A stretch of 64,000 nucleotides of DNA from a virus: IMG/VR virus record IMGVR_UViG_3300025875_000621, positions 30,638 through 94,637 of that record. One strand, written 5' to 3'. How positions within the stretch are numbered: position 1 is the first letter of the stretch; each line of letters starts with the position of its first letter. Shown here one piece after another: positions 3,317 through 57,876 of this stretch. A program made the translations under genes and the position numbers. Below the pieces are notes generated by a model. It did not search any database. It was not told the DNA's origin and saw nothing but the letters and a program-made list of their open reading frames with translations.

Positions 3317-3371
3317 GCAGTGCGTACACTCCTGGTGTACGCACTGCAGACCAGCTGAGGAGCTGACCGTG
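3317..3371 (+). promoter_or_regulatory. promoter-operator palindrome plus extended RBS
   Basis: perfect inverted repeat GCAGTGCGTACAC-TCCTG-GTGTACGCACTGC containing a TACACT -10 hexamer, then CCAGCTGAGGAGCTGACCGTG. Confidence 0.75.
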
Positions 3372-3659: not shown

Positions 3660-4114
3660 CCGCCTCCCTGGGCATGCGCCTGGCCGTGACCGGCACCTCC
3701 GGCCGCTGGCAGGCCGCCCTCCGCTCCGGCCACCGCCGCACCCTGGCGGAGTGCGGCCACGGCCACCGAAACAGGGACGGCGGACAGGCCAACGCCCGCC
3801 AGTGCGGTGAGCTGCTGATCCGCGCCGCACGCAACCCGCACGCCGCCGCCGCGTTCCGTGCGCACGCCGTGGAGTCCGCGGCCGCCGCCCAGCGCGCCGG
3901 AGCCCGCATCACCCTGGAGGAGGCCAGCGCCCGCGCCACGGCCACCCTGGACACCTGGCGCACCGTGGTCCTGGACGGGGACCTGCACGTCCCCAGCCGG
4001 GCCTGGGGCGCGGACCGCCCCGCCTGCGGCTGCTGCATCCCAGAGCCGTCCCCGGGGGAGCAGGAGCGGGCAGCGCGCCGGGCGGCTCACCGGGCACCCT
4101 GGAGCGCCCCGTGA
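3656..4114 (+). CDS. hypothetical protein
   Basis: coupled at both ends by GTGA overlaps; CGHGH motif. Confidence 0.6.
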   Translation: MTASLGMRLAVTGTSGRWQAALRSGHRRTLAECGHGHRNRDGGQANARQCGELLIRAARNPHAAAAFRAHAVESAAAAQRAGARITLEEASARATATLDTWRTVVLDGDLHVPSRAWGADRPACGCCIPEPSPGEQERAARRAAHRAPWSAP

Positions 4115-8473: not shown

Positions 8474-8562
8474 CCCACCTGGCGGGCGCGCCACCGCGCC
8501 CGCCAGGCCCACCCACTGCACACTGCTGACGCACACCACCCCACCTGAGGAGACCCGCGCAC

Positions 8563-14123: not shown

Positions 14124-14248
14124 GGGCGTGGTGGCACCGGCGGCTGGGCCACACCGTGACGGTGCGGCGCGTGTCCGTGCCGATGTGGGACCCGTCCGCC
14201 CGGGGGGAGCTGATCGACTGCTCCTGCGGGAAGCGGTGGGCACGGTGA
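14120..14248 (+). CDS. 42-aa protein coupled to the relaxase
   Basis: GTG overlaps the upstream stop and its TGA overlaps the relaxase ATG; MRAWWHRRLGH...DCSCGKRWAR. Confidence 0.5.
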   Translation: MRAWWHRRLGHTVTVRRVSVPMWDPSARGELIDCSCGKRWAR

Positions 14249-15828
14249 TGCCGAACATCACCCGGGGCACCCGGCCGGGTGGGCTCATGGCGTACCTGGT
14301 GGGGCCAGGCCGGTCTAACGAGCACACGGAGCCGCACCTGGTGGCGGGGTCCTCCAGCATCATGGCCTGGTTCGATGAGGAGGAGCTGTCCCACGACGCG
14401 GCGCTGAGCATCGCGCGTGAGCTGGACGCCCCGCACCGGTTGTACGGGGTGGACGTCCCCGGCGGGCACATCTGGCACTGCTCCCTGTCCCTCCGCGCGG
14501 AGGAGGGGCAGCTGACGGATGAGCGGTGGGCAGAGATCGCCACGGACTTCATGGAGCGCATGGGCTTCTCCGGTGGCGGGGATGAGACGGAGCCCGGCGG
14601 GAAGGCCCCGGTGCGCTGGGTGGCGGTCCGGCACGGCCTGTCCAAGGCGGGGAACGATCACGTCCACCTGGTGGTGGACCTGGTGCGTGAGGACGGCACC
14701 CGGGCGGACGTGTGGCGTGACCAGGTGCGCGCGCAGAAGGTGTCCGGGGAGTTGGAGAAGAAGTACGGGCTGGAGGTGCTGGAGTCCCGCAGTCGTGGCC
14801 GTGGGGAGCGCGGGGTGAAGCCGTCGGAGCTGGCGCGGGCGCGGACCGCGGGTGCCCCGGAGACGGAGCGGGAGACGCTGGCGCGGACGGTGCGCGCCGC
14901 GGCCGCCGCCGCGGGGGATGAAGCGGAGTTCGTGCGCCGGCTGAGGGCGGAGCGGGTGCTGGTGCGGCCGCGGTACGCCACGGGCACGGACCAGGTGGTG
15001 GCCGGGTACTCCGTGGCCGTCCGTCCGTCCGGGACCGGGCAGCGGCCGGTGTGGTACGGCGGCGGGCACCTGGCCAAGGACCTGACGCTGCCGCGGCTGC
15101 GGGAGGACTGGGCGGACAGCCCGGAGGCTGCGCAGGGCGCGGTGGCGGAGTGGCAGGCAGCGCGCACGCAGCGGCGGCCGGCGGCGCCGGGCCGGGAGAC
15201 GCGGGTGCCTACCGCGGACGTGTGGGAGCAGGTGAACGCGGAGCTGGAGCAGGTGCAGGAGCGGCTGGGCCGCGTGCCCGTGGATGACGTGGCGGAGTGG
15301 GCGCGGGTGGCCCGTGAGACGTCCGGCGCGTTCGCCGCCTGGTCCCGGCGGGTGGAGACCACCCCAGGGCCGCTGGCGGCCACCGCGGACGCCCTGGCCC
15401 GGTCCGCGCACGTGCCTGCGTGGCAAACGCGTGGCCGGCGCCCGTCCGGGCCGTCCGCGCGGGGTGCTGCGCTGCTGCTGGCGTCCGCGGCGCACGGCGG
15501 GCGGGGCCCGGTGGCGGAGGCGGTGCTGCTGCGTCAGCTGACCAACATGGCGCGGGCGCTGCATGACGCGCATCTGGCGGTGGGGGATGCGCAGCGGGCC
15601 GCGCAGATCGCGTCCGCGGTGCGGCAGGACCTGGAGCGGGTGCGGCAGGTGCTGCCTGCCCCGGAGACGGCGCTGGCCCCAGCTGGGACGGTGCAGGAGG
15701 TGGCCCGGCCAGCGCCGCGGCCGCCCGCTCCCCCGGTGCGCCGGGTGGGGGACGTGCTGCCCGCGGACCTGGAGAGGGCCCGGCGGGTGCAGGACACCAC
15801 CGCAGAGCGCGGTGGCGCGGAGCGATGA
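14248..15828 (+). CDS. MOBP-family relaxase
   Basis: MPNITRG...LMAYL, HIWHCSLSL, VRHG...DHVHLVV (HUH). Confidence 0.92.
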   Translation: MPNITRGTRPGGLMAYLVGPGRSNEHTEPHLVAGSSSIMAWFDEEELSHDAALSIARELDAPHRLYGVDVPGGHIWHCSLSLRAEEGQLTDERWAEIATDFMERMGFSGGGDETEPGGKAPVRWVAVRHGLSKAGNDHVHLVVDLVREDGTRADVWRDQVRAQKVSGELEKKYGLEVLESRSRGRGERGVKPSELARARTAGAPETERETLARTVRAAAAAAGDEAEFVRRLRAERVLVRPRYATGTDQVVAGYSVAVRPSGTGQRPVWYGGGHLAKDLTLPRLREDWADSPEAAQGAVAEWQAARTQRRPAAPGRETRVPTADVWEQVNAELEQVQERLGRVPVDDVAEWARVARETSGAFAAWSRRVETTPGPLAATADALARSAHVPAWQTRGRRPSGPSARGAALLLASAAHGGRGPVAEAVLLRQLTNMARALHDAHLAVGDAQRAAQIASAVRQDLERVRQVLPAPETALAPAGTVQEVARPAPRPPAPPVRRVGDVLPADLERARRVQDTTAERGGAER

Positions 15829-25899: not shown

Positions 25900-27339
25900 T
25901 CAGAGACCGCGGGAGACTTCCGCGGCCACCTGCAGCCACGCGTACCGGCTGCGCGGGCTCATCGCCTGGTAGTCGATGGGCCGGCCACCGGCCAGGGCCG
26001 CGTCCGGGGGCACCTCCACCACGGCGCGGGTGAGCTTCCCGAAGTGGGAGTGCACGCGGCGTGCCAGGTCCCGCTGCGCCCGGACCCGCTCACCGACGGC
26101 GGCGGCGGTCTCCGCGCGGACCAGGATGGTGACCGCGTTCCGCACCAGGTCCACCCGCCCGGCGTCCAGCAGCTGCTCCAGCATGAACGCGGCGTGGTCC
26201 ACCGTGTCCTCTCCCAGGGACATGGGGACCACCAGCTGGTGGGCGGCGCTGACCGCGGCCTGCCAGACGGGCGCGATGGAGGAGTTCCCGGTGTCCACGA
26301 TCACCAGGCGGTAGAAGCGGGACACCAGGCCGTGGACATGGCCGAACCCGTCCGCGTCCACGGCGTCCCGCAGGCTGGGGTCCTCCGTGGAGGCCAGGAC
26401 GTCGAAGTGCTGATCCCCCTGCGGGCGCACGTAGTTGTCCAGGTCCCCCATGCGCGCGTTCGGGCCGGTGAAGCGGGGCAGGTCCCGCAGCAGGTCCACC
26501 GCGGTGTTCTTCTGCTCCGGGTTGGCCATGGCCCGCAGTCCCAGCGTGCCCCTGTTCTCGTTGGCGTCCCAGGCCAGAACTCCGCCGCCGCGGTGCTGAC
26601 CCAGGGTGGCGGCCAGCGCCAGAACGGTGGTCGTCTTGGGCGCTCCGCCCTTCGGGTTCGCCACCACGATGGTGCGGGGCCCGTCGTAGGACCGCTGCAC
26701 GGTCTGGACGTTCCGCCTCCAGGTCATCTCTGCGCGGGAGGGGCTGGGCTTCACCAGGCCGCCGGTGCCGCGGCGGACGGCACCCTGCCAGCCCTGCTGC
26801 GCGTGCTCCGGGCGGCGGGGCGGCTGGGTGGCCTGCCAGTCCCGGTGGGTGGGGAGCGCGTCCGGGGCGGTCTCCGCGGGTGCCGGTGCCGGCTCCTCCT
26901 CCGGCGCGTGGCGGGGGCGGCCCACCAGGGGGTCCAGCTCCCCCAGCGTGGAGTGCCGGGTCCCCGGGGCCTGGTCACCGGCCCGCCAGACGGGCTCCTG
27001 GGGCAGCGGGTCTGTGCGAACTCGCACAGACCCGGCGGCCTCCGCCGTCCCCGGCCGGGCTGGGGGCTCCAGCCCGGCCTCCTCCACGCGGCCGTCCGGG
27101 TGCACGTACAGCACCCAGGCGCCGGCCGGGTCGTAGGTGTCCACGCGGACGGCGCGCTGCAGCTCCACGGCCACGTCCTTCACGTGGTCCAGGGCGCTGG
27201 TGCGGGCGGTGGCCACGTCCGGCGCTGCCACCGGGCGGTCCGGGCGGCCGGGCATGCTCACCTCACCGGTGCCGTCCTCCCGGACGGTGGCGGTGATGCG
27301 CGGCCAGGTGGGGATGGTGGCGGGGGTGGGCGTGGGCAT
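25900..27339 (-). CDS. MinD/ParA-like ATPase
   Basis: ANPKGGAPKTT, WDANENRGTL, IVDTGN; CTGAGGAGG RBS. Confidence 0.85.
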   Translation of the reverse strand: MPTPTPATIPTWPRITATVREDGTGEVSMPGRPDRPVAAPDVATARTSALDHVKDVAVELQRAVRVDTYDPAGAWVLYVHPDGRVEEAGLEPPARPGTAEAAGSVRVRTDPLPQEPVWRAGDQAPGTRHSTLGELDPLVGRPRHAPEEEPAPAPAETAPDALPTHRDWQATQPPRRPEHAQQGWQGAVRRGTGGLVKPSPSRAEMTWRRNVQTVQRSYDGPRTIVVANPKGGAPKTTTVLALAATLGQHRGGGVLAWDANENRGTLGLRAMANPEQKNTAVDLLRDLPRFTGPNARMGDLDNYVRPQGDQHFDVLASTEDPSLRDAVDADGFGHVHGLVSRFYRLVIVDTGNSSIAPVWQAAVSAAHQLVVPMSLGEDTVDHAAFMLEQLLDAGRVDLVRNAVTILVRAETAAAVGERVRAQRDLARRVHSHFGKLTRAVVEVPPDAALAGGRPIDYQAMSPRSRYAWLQVAAEVSRGL

Positions 27340-27368
27340 GGGGTCCTCCTCAGGTGGGGTGATGCGGG

Positions 27369-28487
27369 TCAGGTGAGCGGGACGCCGTGGGCGCGGAGCC
27401 ACGGCACGGGGTCTGTGAACTGGCCGTCCAGCTGCACCTCAAAGTGCAGGTGTGGGCCGGTGCTGTCTCCGTAGGAGCCGATGCGGGCGATCTGCTGGCC
27501 GGCCACCACGGGGTCTCCCACGCGGACCATGAGGTCCTGGGGGTACATGTGCGCGGAGCGGGTGAGGACCTGACGGCCCTGCTCATCCCGCCCGTGGTCC
27601 ACCACGATCAGGTTTCCGTAGCCGGTGGAGGGCCCGGACCGGATGACCACGCCGGGCCCGGCCGCGTAGATGGGCTGGCCCAGGCCGGGGGCTATGTCGA
27701 TGCCGTTGTGCATGGTGCCCCAGCGGGGCCCGTACGGGGACGTCATGCGGCCCACGGCGGGCAGGGTCCAGCCCTGCGAGGACGCCCCACCGGCGGGCGG
27801 CAGCGGCGGGTTCGCACCGCAGGGCAGAGCGCCGGCGCCGTCCACCACGGGGGTGGTGATGACCTGCGCTCCGGCCAGGGCGTTCACCACCTGCGTGGCG
27901 GGGCCCCAGTAGCGCGTGTAGTGGTTCGGGTCCGCGTTCCGCTGGACGCGGTGCGCGGCCATGGTGGGCGCCATGGTCTCCCAGCCCTGGACGCTGCGGA
28001 GGCCGGGCTGTCCGCCGCGGCCGCCGGTGAAGAACATGGTGGCGCTGCCGTAGGCGTCCAGGCGTACCTCCCGCGGTCCCCACGGGTCCCGCTGCTGGAA
28101 CCAGCCCAGGGAGTCCGGCCCGGCCAGGTCCCCGTGGTCCACCGCGGTCAGGGTGGACTCCCCCATGGAGACCATGACGCCGATGGTCTGGCCCTGGACG
28201 GAGAACCCGGCGTCCGCTCCGGCCTGGATGATCGCGGCTGCTCCCACCAGCTGGGCGCCGGAGTAGCCGGCCACGGAGCCGGTGGGCACGCCGGACACGG
28301 ACACGGAGACGCTACCGCCAGTGGCAGCGCAGGGGGTCTGCTGGTCCGCGTCATCCTGGGCCATGACGGTCAGGAAGATCAGCAGGAGGATCAGGAAAAA
28401 CACGGGGCTGGCCACCAGCATGGCGCCCAGGGCGGGGAGCGCGTACCGGGCCGCGGCGCTCCTGGTCACGCCTCCTGCGGTGCTCAC
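27369..28487 (-). CDS. M23 peptidase / conjugation cell-wall hydrolase
   Basis: N-terminal TM, MGES...DSLGWFQQR, HNGID, STGPHLHFEV. Confidence 0.9.
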   Translation of the reverse strand: MSTAGGVTRSAAARYALPALGAMLVASPVFFLILLLIFLTVMAQDDADQQTPCAATGGSVSVSVSGVPTGSVAGYSGAQLVGAAAIIQAGADAGFSVQGQTIGVMVSMGESTLTAVDHGDLAGPDSLGWFQQRDPWGPREVRLDAYGSATMFFTGGRGGQPGLRSVQGWETMAPTMAAHRVQRNADPNHYTRYWGPATQVVNALAGAQVITTPVVDGAGALPCGANPPLPPAGGASSQGWTLPAVGRMTSPYGPRWGTMHNGIDIAPGLGQPIYAAGPGVVIRSGPSTGYGNLIVVDHGRDEQGRQVLTRSAHMYPQDLMVRVGDPVVAGQQIARIGSYGDSTGPHLHFEVQLDGQFTDPVPWLRAHGVPLT

Positions 28488-49739: not shown

Positions 49740-50257
49740 GCCACGTGCCGGACCGGCTGACCGGCGCTCCGCTGCCCACGGAGCCGCCTACCCCGGAGCA
49801 GGCGGCCGCGGAGCAGGCCGCCCTGAACGTCCCCGTGGGCAGCGGCGGACCTGGTGCCTGCACGGACCCGCGCTGCCCCACGCACCGGTTCGGCCGTCAC
49901 GTGCACACCGCCAGCCGAACCTGGCTCCTGCCCCCGGAGACGGCGCCGGTGCCGGACCCGGAGGACGCCGGGTGGGTGGACCGGTACAGCCGGGGCTTCA
50001 CCTGCGTGCCGTGCCGGGGGACTGGCCGGACCATCCACCACGACCTGCCGGACGGCAGCGCCCGCGCTCAGAGTTGCCTGACCTGCAGCGGCAGCGGCCG
50101 CCAGCCACATAAGCGCCTGCAGGAGGTGGTGGCGTTCGGGGAGGAGCTGGCGGAGCTGGCGCTGAACCTGGAGGACGACGCGGCGGCCGCCCGGCTGGTG
50201 CACATCGCAGCCCGGCTGCGCGCGCTCCCGGTCAACCTGGCGGGGGAGCAGCTGTGA
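49736..50257 (+). CDS. protein with DnaJ-type CxxCxGxG motifs
   Basis: CVPCRGTG and CLTCSGSG. Confidence 0.6.
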   Translation: MSHVPDRLTGAPLPTEPPTPEQAAAEQAALNVPVGSGGPGACTDPRCPTHRFGRHVHTASRTWLLPPETAPVPDPEDAGWVDRYSRGFTCVPCRGTGRTIHHDLPDGSARAQSCLTCSGSGRQPHKRLQEVVAFGEELAELALNLEDDAAAARLVHIAARLRALPVNLAGEQL

Positions 50258-50280
50258 CCGCCGCTGCACTGGACGGCCCC

Positions 50281-50299
50281 CGTACCCTGGGGGTGTACA
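50281..50299 (+). promoter_or_regulatory. operator/promoter copy upstream of the HTH gene
   Basis: CGTACC-CTGGGGG-TGTACA with TACCCT. Confidence 0.55.
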
Positions 50300-50322
50300 T
50301 CATCGACGCAGAGGAGGAGCCA

Positions 50323-50643
50323 GTGGCCGCCAGGCGCACGCCAGAGAAGCCGCCCGTGGGGCTGCCGGAGGTGGCCGCCATGTTCGGCGTGTCCGCCAAG
50401 ACGCCCGTGCGGTGGGGGTACCGCTCCCGGCTGGGTGAGATGCCCGTGCCGTTCCCGGAGCCGGACTTCACGATCAGCCGCGGCGTGCCCGGCTGGTACC
50501 GGTCCACCATCGACCGCTGGGCGCAGGAGAGCGGCCGCCCCATCGTGGCGGAGCCGCAGTACGTGCGCCGGGCCGGTGCGGAGGACGCTGTGGACAGCGC
50601 GGAGGAGACCCCGGAGGGTGCCCTGGTCACCGCGGGTAGCTGA
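50323..50643 (+). CDS. AlpA/Xis-like HTH DNA-binding protein
   Basis: VGLPEVAAMFGVS...FPEPD...W..STI.RWA; GAGGAGGAG RBS (alternative start 50254). Confidence 0.75.
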   Translation: MAARRTPEKPPVGLPEVAAMFGVSAKTPVRWGYRSRLGEMPVPFPEPDFTISRGVPGWYRSTIDRWAQESGRPIVAEPQYVRRAGAEDAVDSAEETPEGALVTAGS

Positions 50644-50782
50644 GGCCAGGGCGGTCCTCCCACCCGGGGGGCCGCCCTTCGGCGCGTGATCCGGCGGGTG
50701 CATAGAGTCACCTGCCTGCCCTAGACGTACTGCACCCCCGCACCGCTGGCAGGCGGCCGGGGGCATGGACTGAGGAGTCCCG

Positions 50783-50845
50783 ATGATCGTAGCGGCATGC
50801 CCTGACAGGAACCAGCGCGCTCACCCCATCGGGTGGTGCTGCTGA
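50783..50845 (+). CDS. putative 20-aa leader peptide coupled to rep
   Basis: CTGAGGAG RBS at 50770-50777; MIVAACPDRNQRAHPIGWCC; TGA directly abuts the rep GTG. Confidence 0.55.
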   Translation: MIVAACPDRNQRAHPIGWCC

Positions 50846-51811
50846 GTGGCCGTCCACTACACGGAGCGGGCGGCAGTGCTGCCGCTCCAGCCAGGTAAGA
50901 AGCTGGTGCTGATGTGCGTGGCGGACTCCGCCAACGCGGACAACCGGGTGGGGTTCCCCGGGTTCGATGCTCTCCAGAAGTGGTCCGGGCTGGCCCGCTC
51001 CACGGTGTACAAGGTGCTGGAGCAGCTGGTGGAGGACGGCTGGCTGGCGCGGTACGGCGCCGGCGGCCGCGGGAAGCGCGCGGAGTTCCTGGTGTTCCCG
51101 CACGGGGACTGCTGCCCTATGCACGGACCGCTCCCTGGCTACGCAGAGCGACGTCCGGGTGACCACTCCTCAGGGTCCAGCCCAGTGGACCCTGAGGAGG
51201 ACGGTGCAGATGGGGCGGAAACCTGTGCACAGACCCCTGTGGAAACTGTGGATACAGACCCTAAAGCTGAACTCCAGGGTCCACAGCAGGGTCCACCCCA
51301 GGGTGGACCCCTTCCCAGCTCCCCTACTAGGACTACTTCTAGGGGGTCTCTTACGGAAGTAGGGGCGGGGCCAGCTGTGGACAGCCCCCCTCCCTCATCC
51401 CCTCCAGCCGCCGGGGCTGCGCCCCTGGCGGAGACGGACCCGGAGCCCGGCTCCCGCTGCCACGTCCACCTGGTCTACCCCGCCACCGGCCCGTGCCAGG
51501 ACTGCGGGGACGCCCGACTGCGGCACCGGGCCTGGGAGGAGCGGCAGGTGCAGCGCCGGCGCGCGGCGGACGCCCAGGAGCGGGCCGCCGCCGCGGAGAC
51601 CCGCGCGCTGACCCGCGCCGCGGTGGCCGCCTGCCGCCTGTGCACCGCGCACGGCCGGGTGACGCTGGAGGGCGTCACCGTGGCCTGCCAGCACGACACG
51701 GCGCGGAACCTGCGCGCTGTGCGCTCTCGGGCGGAGGCGCGGCGCGCGGCTGGGCTGGACCAGGACCCGCCGGACGCTGAGGGTCCACCCGCGGAGACCG
51801 CCACCGGCTGA
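50846..51811 (+). CDS. replication initiator (N-terminal wHTH, C-terminal Cys cluster)
   Basis: KLVLMCVADSAN...FPG...L...SGL.RSTV...L..L...GW; CRLC..HG...CQH. Confidence 0.75.
   Translation: MAVHYTERAAVLPLQPGKKLVLMCVADSANADNRVGFPGFDALQKWSGLARSTVYKVLEQLVEDGWLARYGAGGRGKRAEFLVFPHGDCCPMHGPLPGYAERRPGDHSSGSSPVDPEEDGADGAETCAQTPVETVDTDPKAELQGPQQGPPQGGPLPSSPTRTTSRGSLTEVGAGPAVDSPPPSSPPAAGAAPLAETDPEPGSRCHVHLVYPATGPCQDCGDARLRHRAWEERQVQRRRAADAQERAAAAETRALTRAAVAACRLCTAHGRVTLEGVTVACQHDTARNLRAVRSRAEARRAAGLDQDPPDAEGPPAETATG
51171..51384. repeat. candidate replication origin within rep (iterons and DnaA-box-like motifs)
   Basis: CAGGGTCCA(C) at 51171, 51275, 51287 and inverted at 51185; TGTGGAAAC, TGTGGATAC, TGTGGACAG; AT-richer patch 51325-51361. 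Confidence 0.55.
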
Positions 51812-51919: not shown

Positions 51920-53200
51920 GTGAGCACTGAACTAGCAGTCCGGGGCGGCGCGTCCGCCCTGACCATCCAGGACGGCCAGACCACCTGGACCCCGCAGCAG
52001 CTGGCCACGCTAGAGCAGCTGGGCGTGGCCGGAGCCAGTGAGGGTGACCTGGCGGTGTTCTTCCACCAGTCCGTCCGTACCGGGCTGGACCCGTTCGCTA
52101 AGCAGCTGTACATGATCGCCCGGAAGGACCGGGCCAACGTGAACGGCCAGTGGGTGGACGTCCTGAAATGGACCATCCAGACCGGGATCGACGGCTACCG
52201 CCTGGTGGCCCGCCGCGCCGCGGACCGCGCTGGCCAGCAGCTGACGTACGACGACACGCTGTGGTGCGGCCCGGACGGCGTGTGGCGTGACGTCTGGCTG
52301 CAGCCGCAGGCGCCGCTGGCGGCGAAGGTGGTGGTGTACCGCGGCGCGGAACGGTTCTCCGCGGTGGCGCACTGGCCGGAGTACGTGCAGACGAAGCGCA
52401 CCGCGGACGGAGACGTGCCGAACAGCATGTGGGCCCGCATGGGCCGGAACCAGCTGGCGAAGTGCGCGGAGGCCCTGGCCCTGCGTAAGGCGTTCCCGCA
52501 GGACCTGTCCGGCATCTACACGGACGACGAGATGGGGCAGGCGGACTCCCAGGCTGAGCGGCAGGCGGAGGAGACCCGGCAGCGGGAGGAGCAGCGCGCC
52601 GCCCAGCGCGTGGCCTCCACCCGCGGCCAGGCCCAGCCCAGCCAGGCCGCGCAGACCGTGGAGGGGGAGGTGGCCGCGGAGCCCGTGGACGCCCGGCCCG
52701 CCCGCGCCGCCCGGGTGGAGCGCACCGCGGAGCAGTGGCTGCAGGCCGTGGCGGACGCCCACACCCTGGACGCCTGCCACCGCCTGTTCCATGAGGCCCG
52801 CGCCGCGGGCTGGGAGAACCGGGACGTGGACGGCACGGACCTGGGAGACCGGATCAAGGCCCGCGCGGAGCAGCTGCAGCAGCGGCCGCAGACCGCCGCG
52901 CAGAAGGAGGCGGCCGCGGCGGCGCCGGAGCAGCCTGCCGCGGAGACCCCGGCGGAGCCCGCCGCCCCGGCCGCCCCCCAGGTGGACCCGGAGGACATGT
53001 GCCGGGACACCCCGGTCCGCCGCGGCGTGATGCTGGCCTTGGTGGAGCTGCTGGCCTCTGACGCTCCCACCCCGGAGCTGGCCACCGCCATGGTGGCTGA
53101 CGCCGCCCAGGAGGAGTACGGCGTCCCCGTGGAGCAGATCAGCACGAAGCGGCTCCGGGACTGGCTGACGCAGCGCACCCGCGGCATCAGCGCCGCCTGA
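51920..53200 (+). CDS. bet: single-strand annealing recombinase (Bet/RecT family)
   Basis: TGLDPFAKQLY, IQTGIDGYR, QLAKCAEALALRKAFP, SGIYT.DEM. Confidence 0.92.
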   Translation: MSTELAVRGGASALTIQDGQTTWTPQQLATLEQLGVAGASEGDLAVFFHQSVRTGLDPFAKQLYMIARKDRANVNGQWVDVLKWTIQTGIDGYRLVARRAADRAGQQLTYDDTLWCGPDGVWRDVWLQPQAPLAAKVVVYRGAERFSAVAHWPEYVQTKRTADGDVPNSMWARMGRNQLAKCAEALALRKAFPQDLSGIYTDDEMGQADSQAERQAEETRQREEQRAAQRVASTRGQAQPSQAAQTVEGEVAAEPVDARPARAARVERTAEQWLQAVADAHTLDACHRLFHEARAAGWENRDVDGTDLGDRIKARAEQLQQRPQTAAQKEAAAAAPEQPAAETPAEPAAPAAPQVDPEDMCRDTPVRRGVMLALVELLASDAPTPELATAMVADAAQEEYGVPVEQISTKRLRDWLTQRTRGISAA

Positions 53201-53291: not shown

Positions 53292-54506
53292 ATGACCATG
53301 ACGGACACCACCCATGACCTGACGGCCGCGATCCGGCGCGTGGACGCACGCCGCACCCGCAGCCGCCAGAAGAAGATCGGCGCCAGTGACGTGGGCACCT
53401 GCCGCCGCCGGACCGGCTACAAGCTGGCCGGGACGAAGCCCACGAACGCGGAGACCGGCCTGCAGGCAGCCATGGGCACCATGCTGCATAAGGGCGTGCT
53501 GGCCGTCCTCCGCCAGGAGTACGGCGCGCTCACGGAGGTGCGCCTGGACAGTGACATGGTGCGTGGCCACACGGACGCCCTGTACTGGTACCCCCCGGAG
53601 CAGGTCCTGCGGTACGGCGGCACCGGGGTGTGGTTCTCCTCTCTGCGCCCCATCGACGTGCAGCGGCTGCAGATGCGCGCCGCCCTCATCGCGGCCGGAG
53701 AGGACCCGGACTCCGCCACCGTGGAGGACGTCAAGACGAAGGGGCTGTACGCCTACCAGCAGGTGGAGGACGCCGGGCCCCGGCTCTCTGAGTGGTTCCA
53801 GGTCCACATCTACGCGTGGCTGCTGCGCACCGGCCAGACCGTGGACCCCCGCCGCGGCTACCCCACCGGCGTGAAGGTCCCCGTGGACACCGTGCGCCTG
53901 CGCTTCCTGAACCGGGACAACGGCCAGAGCTTCCCCCGGGAGGCGCCCTACGATCCGGCGATCACCGCGGAGGCCCTGGGCTGGATCGCGGAGGTGCTGG
54001 AGCAGCTGGAGGCCGGTGGCCCGGAGAACGTCACCCGGGACGGGTACGGCCCCTCCACGTCCATCATCTGCAAGTCCTGCCCGTTCCTGGACGCCTGCTG
54101 GGGCCCGCAGCCCCTGGGCCCGGAGGGCTTCACCCGGGAGTCTGAGGTGATCCGGGAGGACGCGGACGTGGAGCTGGCCCTGATGGAGTACGACCGCGGC
54201 CGCGCCCTGGAGCGGGACGGTAAGCAGATCAAGGACCGGAGCCGGGCAGCACTGGACGCCGCGGCCCCGGGTATCTACGGGGACAACCAGCTGTCCTGGA
54301 AGCGGTCAGACGCAAAGTACGTGCTGGATGCTGACCAGGCCCTCATCATGCTGGAGGAGGCCGGGCTGGAGCCGCCCATGAAGTGGAAGGACCCCAGCCG
54401 GTCCATCAGTGTCCGCCCCCGCCCCGTGGCCACCCAGCCCGCGGCCCAGAAGAAGAAGCCGGCACGGAAGCCGGTCACGGAGACCACGGAGACCAGCGGA
54501 GGCTGA
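53292..54506 (+). CDS. Cas4-like PD-(D/E)xK exonuclease
   Basis: IGASDVGTCRR, GT.LH, GH.D, DVKT, QVHIY, CKSCPFLDAC. Confidence 0.85.
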   Translation: MTMTDTTHDLTAAIRRVDARRTRSRQKKIGASDVGTCRRRTGYKLAGTKPTNAETGLQAAMGTMLHKGVLAVLRQEYGALTEVRLDSDMVRGHTDALYWYPPEQVLRYGGTGVWFSSLRPIDVQRLQMRAALIAAGEDPDSATVEDVKTKGLYAYQQVEDAGPRLSEWFQVHIYAWLLRTGQTVDPRRGYPTGVKVPVDTVRLRFLNRDNGQSFPREAPYDPAITAEALGWIAEVLEQLEAGGPENVTRDGYGPSTSIICKSCPFLDACWGPQPLGPEGFTRESEVIREDADVELALMEYDRGRALERDGKQIKDRSRAALDAAAPGIYGDNQLSWKRSDAKYVLDADQALIMLEEAGLEPPMKWKDPSRSISVRPRPVATQPAAQKKKPARKPVTETTETSGG

Positions 54507-57725: not shown

Positions 57726-57780
57726 CAGCAGGGGCTCCGCGCGTGCAACCTCCTCAGCTGGGCGCGCGGGGCCCCTGCTG
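57726..57780 (+). ncRNA. candidate antisense hairpin sRNA targeting the CCAGCUGAGGAG RBS
   Basis: TATCCT -10 at 57715-57720; 19-bp stem with two G-U pairs; loop GCAACCUCCUCAGCUGG. Confidence 0.6.
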
Positions 57781-57825: not shown

Positions 57826-57876
57826 GCGTACACTGTCCGTGCACGCACACCCCAGCCAGCTGAGGAGCTGACCGTG
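57826..57876 (+). promoter_or_regulatory. promoter-operator plus extended RBS
   Basis: GCGTACA-CTGTCCG-TGCACGC then CCAGCTGAGGAGCTGACCGTG. Confidence 0.7.

Follow-up and report, generated by a model that had tools for sequence, protein, structure and literature searches.

Leader-peptide gating of the replication initiator is textbook knowledge for enterobacterial plasmids; we know of no description of it for actinobacterial phages or phage-plasmids, where replication control is poorly understood. In plasmid R1 (IncFII), Blomberg, Nordstrom and Wagner (1992, cited in PMC5304414) are said to have described the coupling of repA to the leader peptide tap under the control of CopA/CopT. In the IncI-alpha, IncB and IncK plasmids, the ribosome-binding site (RBS) of rep is enclosed in a hairpin (structure III), which becomes open when the leader is translated, and these repY-repZ systems also need a pseudoknot and the antisense RNA RNAI. 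Here we consider the start region of a replication initiator gene, hereafter rep, in a 64,000-nt stretch of viral DNA (the window). The stretch corresponds to positions 30638-94637 of the linear IMG/VR virus record IMGVR_UViG_3300025875_000621, which is 94.6 kb long and estimated to be approximately 91% complete. An open reading frame (ORF) of 20 codons, the leader, ends exactly at the start of rep, and its translation may control that of the initiator by opening a predicted hairpin.

The IncK case of the repY-repZ (RepA) systems is listed in PMC10724649. In pPsv48C REx-C (Pseudomonas), a short ORF, the repI leader, is translationally coupled to the initiator gene repJ; three stem-loops and a putative antisense RNA are described there, and an in-frame deletion of the leader has no effect on replication (PMC5304414). 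An actinobacterial precedent is provided by the uPPE2-PPE2 pair of M. tuberculosis, where termination-reinitiation depends on an upstream ORF (uORF): PPE2 has no usable Shine-Dalgarno (SD) sequence and is strictly dependent on the translation of uPPE2 (PMC11260477).

As a preliminary description of this DNA had stated, the motif CTGAGGAG (50770-50777) precedes the ATG at 50783 of the 20-codon mini-ORF, whose TGA (50843-50845) directly adjoins, in frame, the GTG of rep at 50846. The motif occurs 16 times in the window, as compared to the expected 3.3 copies, and 11 of the copies are situated 5-11 nt upstream of the starts of ORFs of at least 64 codons. Since it is both over-represented and localized before ORF starts, CTGAGGAG is, on these counts, the house RBS motif of the element, and the copy at 50770 has a typical spacing. 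When the 135 nt preceding rep were dinucleotide-shuffled 20,000 times, an ORF of 8-45 codons with an SD in front and its end at or over the rep start arose in 2.5% of the cases for a 4-nt SD, and in 0.6% for an SD of at least 5 nt.

The same layout is observed in a JGI metagenome contig (L003) that encodes a 65% identical Rep and shows synteny of the upstream Xis-like gene, rep and RecT. Its mini-ORF also has 20 codons (GTG 3938 to TGA 4000, encoding MIVAVPTDRNQPSHPSGWWC), the TGA-GTG junction at 3998-4003 is at the same place, and the 13-mer GGACTGAGGAGTC, which forms the leader SD block, is identical. The start of the leader is kept as well, the ATG being replaced by GTG beside a 1-nt indel. 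Hence the uORF is conserved in an independent homologous rep locus with respect to its SD, its length and its junction with rep.

The peptide itself is not conserved. The two leaders differ at 14 nucleotides, distributed as 5/5/4 over codon positions 1/2/3, with eight non-synonymous and two synonymous codon changes. The corresponding numbers are 0/0/6, all synonymous, for codons 1-21 of rep and 5/3/24 for its codons 1-100. Judging by these patterns, the leader peptide is not under amino-acid selection, and its start, length and stop position are retained. As the peptide drifts while the start, length and stop of the ORF persist, it would be the act of translation that matters and not the product, this being the pattern expected in such a case.

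The second line of evidence concerns RNA structure. The rep initiation region is predicted to be hidden in a stable hairpin (Table 1), whose 3' arm contains the SD-like element GGGUGGUG as well as the first two bases of both the leader stop codon UGA and the rep start codon GUG. The hairpin is predicted both for this segment alone and within the full leader, and only 3 of 200 shuffles are as stable (z -2.7). The region from -38 to +6 of rep is the most structured of the 12 start regions checked in the element, nine of which lie between -5 and -12.6 kcal/mol, the Xis-like gene being at -19.4 and the leader at -14.9; its fold belongs to the lowest 4.5% of all 45-nt windows.

L003 forms an equivalent hairpin of -20.7 kcal/mol at the rep start, and the consensus structure of the two sequences has 15 pairs, none of them broken. 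Among the seven differences within the hairpin, three are in the loop, one is in a bulge, one changes a G-U pair to A-U, and the remaining two constitute a compensatory G-C to C-G double change. The latter replaces Arg by Pro at leader position 12 and Cys by Trp at position 19; as the compensatory pair alters the peptide, the RNA structure has been kept across a peptide-altering change. When mutations were introduced randomly at equal density, a minimum free energy of -20.7 kcal/mol or better was obtained in only 5.4% of trials.

According to the preliminary description, the GTG of rep is not preceded by a strong SD. This needs to be modified, as GGGUGGUG, an interrupted element at 50831-50838 located 7 nt upstream of the GTG, is predicted to pair with the anti-SD at -9.5 kcal/mol, compared with -8.1 kcal/mol for the leader SD; however, the element is fully base-paired within the predicted hairpin. 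Its predicted probability of being unpaired is 0.00 in the window and 0.14 in L003, the values for the rep GUG being 0.05 and 0.22, and those for the leader SD, 0.67 and 0.57, respectively. These models predict that the rep start would be sequestered in a structure that translation of the leader would open. A role of the hairpin as a transcription attenuator was rejected, as there is neither a U-run after it nor a terminator-like site.

We suggest, with somewhat better than even confidence, that the hairpin is unfolded as the mini-ORF is translated, and that rep is thereby supplied with ribosomes through termination-reinitiation. The leader-rep mRNA would probably start slightly downstream of the conserved -10-like hexamer TAGAGT at 50703, a candidate promoter that we infer from the alignment with L003, although a consensus promoter scan gave no hit. 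Ribosomes would enter at AUG 50783 and its exposed house RBS CUGAGGAG, the rep initiation region (GGGUGGUG and GUG 50846) being locked in the -24 kcal/mol hairpin, the 5' arm of which is made of leader codons 10-15. A ribosome translating the leader would melt this hairpin and terminate at UGA 50843-45 next to GUG 50846; then either the same ribosome would re-initiate, or a new 30S subunit would enter on the transiently freed GGGUGGUG. The Rep output would be set by the initiation rate at the leader, the peptide itself having no function, and Rep is probably made only when the mini-ORF is translated. Gating of Rep through the leader, as proposed in the preliminary description, gains support from the layout of L003 and from the conserved hairpin, but the part of that proposal which regarded the leader RBS as the target of a small RNA is not, as discussed below.

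Several observations weigh against coupling. The arrangement is seen in only two loci, which are approximately 80% identical at the nucleotide level in this region, and we estimate that at 74% GC a 20-codon frame would be open by chance in about two cases of three; hence, conservation of the open frame alone is weak evidence. The hairpin is moderately significant (p ~0.05 when tested by mutation), and the two sequences compared are also those from which the consensus structure was derived. The leader start region is only moderately open, the probability of being unpaired being 0.41 for the AUG and 0.11 for the GUG of L003. The SD-like element of rep has a comparable predicted strength and could initiate alone whenever the hairpin breathes. 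Finally, six loci of a distant clade within the Rep family (L033-L037, L040) carry a 19-codon ORF that ends on the rep start (GTGA) and is not conserved.

If the mini-ORF is incidental or weakly translated, Rep would initiate alone from GGGUGGUG and GUG, and the hairpin would be a constitutive damper keeping Rep low; the conserved blocks upstream would then serve as a promoter, a 5' untranslated region (UTR) or a protein-binding palindrome, GGACT-N4-AGTCC. The anti-SD duplex of rep, as good as that of the leader, would permit this, but the element is practically never unpaired in the predicted ensemble. The leader SD does lie inside a palindrome that could be an operator; however, this palindrome occurs nowhere else in the window, and we rejected it as such. 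An unconstrained peptide, the cheapness of open frames at the GC content of the window (73.8%) and the spurious 19-codon ORFs at the rep start in the other clade would all agree with an incidental ORF, but the real genes of this element use exactly this signal, CTGAGGAG with a start codon 5-6 nt behind it, the start codon of the leader has been retained next to an indel, and in both loci the stop falls precisely at the rep start. On balance, we consider an incidental mini-ORF unlikely, though still to be reckoned with.

Upstream ORFs that meet the rep start are not limited to these two loci. For 19 distant relatives the match extended as far as the rep start, and in 8 of them this start overlaps the stop codon of an upstream ORF of at least 81 codons, with junctions of the ATGA, GTGA, TTGA or TGATG type. 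This fits a habit of the Rep family to couple rep to the preceding cistron, whose place would be taken by the mini-cistron in the window/L003 lineage, where the intergenic region is approximately 200 nt long.

The 19-codon ORFs mentioned above are probably of a different nature. In these loci (coordinates ~2400-2502 in each) a strong GC hairpin, GGCGGGGCGGAGC...GCTCCGCCCCCGCC, is situated approximately 50 nt upstream of rep, and the ORF starts in its loop. The ORF is absent from the sister loci L024, L032 and L038 and is reduced to five codons in L039. Because it starts in a terminator-type hairpin and is absent or shortened in the sister loci, it is, from this comparison, probably a chance ORF over a terminator.

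L003 was the sole match among the metagenome contigs searched for homologous loci. The viral contigs, searched with Rep, the Xis-like protein and profiles, yielded only L004/L020 (43% identical, without the mini-ORF) and 24 distant relatives; no homologous locus was found among the genome contigs, or in the phage GenBank collection by blastn and tblastn, and none of 15 RecT-related loci has this Rep. An exact DNA pattern scan with GGACTGAGGAGTC...TGATCGTAGC found nothing, and a scan with CTGACAGGAACCAG gave 116 unrelated chance matches, none of them with similarity to Rep or the leader.

At the protein level, residues 14-67 of Rep match HTH_36 (29.8 bits, the Pfam cut-off being 25), which is the sole match of this family in the 94.6-kb record. 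Rep also matches PHROG families 3171, 1032, 2447, 6643 and 391 (O-like), with the best E-value 1.5e-17, the initiator names of these families being annotations and not assays. There was no match to NCBIfam, and the matches to solved structures were just marginal helix-turn-helix (HTH) ones. By these family matches, the 321-aa protein is a phage-type replication initiator (HTH_36 / lambda O-like). Homology to IncFII RepA or IncI RepZ was rejected, as the protein matches only HTH_36 and the phage PHROG initiator families.

Only three close homologues of Rep were found among 5.8 billion proteins. A profile search of 1.84 billion representatives gave 842 relatives; of the 150 that were listed, the majority align from their first residues onwards. 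The relatives in the Rep family begin at the same M-A-x-H-Y, and a start of the M/V-A-x-H form is present in all 14 relatives whose sequences were read, down to approximately 35% identity. As the relatives share the position of the start and L003 has TGA-GTG at the same place, the comparison indicates that the leader is not a lost N-terminus of Rep and that GTG 50846 is the correct start of rep. If, on the contrary, the TGA were a sequencing error or were read through, the leader, being in frame with rep, would be an N-terminal extension of the initiator, an outcome that the preliminary description had allowed for. However, the TGA is present at the same position in an independent assembly, L003, the start shared by the sequenced relatives argues against an extension, and the leader lacks a protein-like pattern of substitutions, so that we consider this explanation extremely unlikely. 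For annotation, this means that the GTG is the right start of rep in spite of its weak appearance, and that gene callers miss 20-codon cistrons of such kind.

A further feature was noticed inside rep. The linker between HTH_36 and the C-terminal domain contains a 14-bp perfect inverted repeat, CTCCTCAGGGTCCA/TGGACCCTGAGGAG (51166-51179 and 51186-51199), and within 51173-51310 there is a cluster of GGGTCCAC/GTGGACCC motifs, four of them exact and a fifth nearly so, which occur in both orientations. The segment 51166-51310 is 90% identical to L003 at the DNA level, and on these features it looks like a candidate lambda-O-style origin embedded in the initiator gene. The same bases also encode a conserved QGP-rich protein motif, and hence the constraints on DNA and protein are inseparable here.

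In the preliminary description the gating of Rep was tentatively ascribed to the RNA of the 57726 hairpin (57726-57780), with the leader RBS as its target in a CopA-like manner. The hairpin is very stable (19-bp stem, -45.9 kcal/mol), and its loop indeed carries CCUCCUCAG, the exact complement of CTGAGGAG, through which the RNA would pair with the leader RBS in trans. However, the match with the leader is limited to the generic 8-mer common to 15 other sites, and the predicted duplex of -15.4 kcal/mol is the second weakest among the 15 CTGAGGAG sites outside the hairpin and lies within the background of random windows (median -11.5 kcal/mol, 5th percentile -18.3). Stronger pairing, over 12 nt at -24.2 to -24.5 kcal/mol, is predicted with the CCAGCUGAGGAG RBS modules at 3355, 29645, 57860 and 2828(-), and the position of the hairpin, 28 nt after a stop codon, is that expected of a terminator. 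As only the generic house motif pairs with the leader, no specific link of the hairpin to rep is seen. Regulation of Rep by this RNA appears very improbable, and this part of the preliminary description is unsupported.

The loop sequence CTCCTCAGCTGG is also perfectly complementary over 12 nt to CCAGCTGAGGAG (57855-57866), the RBS module of the gene that follows approximately 100 nt downstream; this module is present at 3355, 29645 and 2828(-) as well. On sequence grounds, the hairpin may serve as an anti-RBS element, either acting in cis or having multiple targets; alternatively, it may be a terminator to which an inverted RBS module has given rise. The CTGAGGAG sites include those at 3355, 4796, 8545, 27353-, 29645, 49084, 57860, 59643 and 60151. 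Some of them belong to longer shared modules: CCCCACCTGAGGAG at 8545, 49084 and 27353(-), and CCAGCTGAGGAGCTGA at 3355, 29645, 57860 and 2828(-), the latter continuing as ...CTGACC in three of the four cases. The sharing of such modules suggests that promoter/RBS cassettes have been reused.

Another possible regulator is an antisense RNA encoded in cis, on the minus strand across the leader SD, which would block translation of the leader; it would form an extra layer atop coupling rather than an alternative to it. Plasmid rep systems with a leader peptide usually have such an RNA (PMC5304414). A -10-like hexamer TACGAT is situated on the minus strand at 50791-50786, inside the perfectly conserved block TGATCGTAGC, and a transcript from it would start opposite the SD hairpin; however, one TANNNT hexamer per approximately 150 nt is expected by chance (our estimate), and no -35 element is seen. 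Moreover, a consensus promoter scan gave nothing on either strand, Rfam gave no match at E up to 1, and folding of the rep hairpin is favoured in the sense over the antisense RNA (-24.2 vs -19.5 kcal/mol). We consider an antisense RNA at this position doubtful.

The inverted repeat GGGCATG/CATGCCC, described earlier as bracketing the leader RBS and start, is real, but it does not exceed chance, as 14 inverted repeats of at least 7 nt are present in the same 300 nt and shuffled versions of the 56-nt segment fold as well as the original (z +0.59). It is only partly kept in L003 (GGG.ACGG/CCGU.CCC). The hairpin following the upstream gene has a visible equivalent in the L003 alignment. Compared to the window, the 5' UTR of L003 contains an additional 37 nt (3840-3876); this insertion forms a hairpin of its own, CTGCAGCCCC...GGGGCTGCAG with the loop AGGAGGAGGAG, and leaves the downstream leader, SD block and rep hairpin unaffected. 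Two further candidates were rejected in this region: intergenic iterons, as the repeat GGCATGGACTGA/GGCATGCCCTGA is not kept in L003, and an internal promoter producing a leaderless rep mRNA, as no -10-like hexamer was seen by eye in 50803-50845.

Table 1. Features of the leader-rep locus and related genes (window coordinates).
Feature	Coordinates	Strand	Remarks
MobA/VirD2-type relaxase	14128-15825	+	
ParA-like ATPase	25903-27402	-	
Xis/BldC-like HTH DNA-binding protein, 129 aa, upstream gene	50254..50643	+	PHROG 597/1553/66
Terminator-like GC hairpin without U-tail, just after the upstream gene	50648..50678	+	Inverted repeat; putative function
-10-like hexamer TAGAGT in the conserved block GTGCATAGAGT	50703..50708	+	Alignment; TACAGT in L003
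Small 5'-UTR hairpin CCGCU-GGCA-GGCGG	50743..50756	+	Predicted; in L003 the stem is identical, two loop bases differ
Inverted repeat GGGCAUG...CAUGCCC around the leader SD and AUG	50761..50802	+	Arms 50761-50767 and 50796-50802
Mini-hairpin GGACU-GAGG-AGUCC with part of the leader SD in the loop	50767..50780	+	Predicted
Leader SD CTGAGGAG	50770..50777	+	5-nt spacer to ATG 50783; probability of being unpaired 0.67
Leader mini-ORF, 20 codons and TGA	50783..50845	+	Encodes MIVAACPDRNQRAHPIGWCC
Predicted hairpin hiding the rep initiation region	50811..50847	+	-24.2 kcal/mol; 5' arm formed by leader codons 10-15
rep, 321-aa initiator with HTH_36 winged-helix N-terminus	50846..51811	+	Pfam, PHROG
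RecT-family annealing protein	51920-53200		
PD-(D/E)XK exonuclease	53292-54506		

The genes for RecT and the exonuclease lie directly downstream of rep and form with it a replication/recombination module. For the upstream Xis-like protein, the NCBIfam matches to BldC and Xis are weak and under the cut-off. The relaxase and the ParA-like ATPase share the record with phage recombination and structural genes, and neither a tyrosine nor a serine integrase was detectable across the whole 94.6-kb record. The presence of the former two genes beside phage genes, together with an undetectable integrase, suggests a phage-plasmid hybrid or mobilisable phage-like element of a high-GC (actinobacterial-type) host and not an integrating prophage. 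In a phage-plasmid-like element, initiator dosage would matter.

It is conceivable, although speculative and in our opinion quite unlikely, that the leader acts as the sensor of a circuit controlling copy number in an actinobacterial phage-plasmid, some unseen input setting the amount of initiator. If so, this amount may decide between plasmid idling and lytic replication. The input could be the antisense RNA across the SD hairpin considered above, or ribosome pausing at the terminal Trp/Cys codons of the leader, UGG-UGC-UGC (UGG-UGG-UGC in L003), which lie in the 3' arm of the rep hairpin.

The practical weight of the observation is modest, given that the principle is known and the case is built on two metagenomic sequences and thermodynamic predictions. 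If the model of leader-dependent initiation is true, the house RBS, the 20-codon leader, the hairpin and the UGA-GUG junction would form a compact portable module of approximately 140 nt controlling Rep dosage, and the locus would be a clean natural system in which to test termination-reinitiation in high-GC bacteria. It would then extend a known principle of control to a new group of hosts, the conserved hairpin over the rep start being new here.

Compared to the tap-repA system of R1, the locus has the same short leader ORF with its own RBS upstream of rep and the same position of the leader stop at the rep start; in R1, and by prediction here, the rep start is structured and dependent on leader translation, with the act of translation mattering rather than the peptide. 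However, the Rep considered here is a phage-type HTH_36 protein and not IncFII RepA, the element is high-GC, actinobacterial and phage/plasmid-like, and no antisense RNA or CopB-type repressor was identified at the locus. With the IncI-alpha/IncB/IncK repY-repZ systems it shares a hairpin over the rep start, predicted in our case, and a leader stop adjacent to this start. Since Rep is an unrelated HTH_36 protein and the defining antisense component was not found (Rfam, promoter scan), the leader-rep arrangement is an analogue of the R1/IncI-type control and not a member of those replicon families.

The pPsv48C REx-C system differs in the Rep family and in the host phylum, and resembles the present locus in that its leader sequence is poorly conserved and the surrounding control region is conserved (PMC5304414). 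In the uPPE2-PPE2 pair, the uORF is governed by a B12 riboswitch (PMC11260477), and the two frames overlap out of frame by 4 nt (AUGA), whereas the UGA and GUG of leader and rep abut in frame; yet both loci have an SD-led uORF whose stop codon touches the start of the downstream gene.

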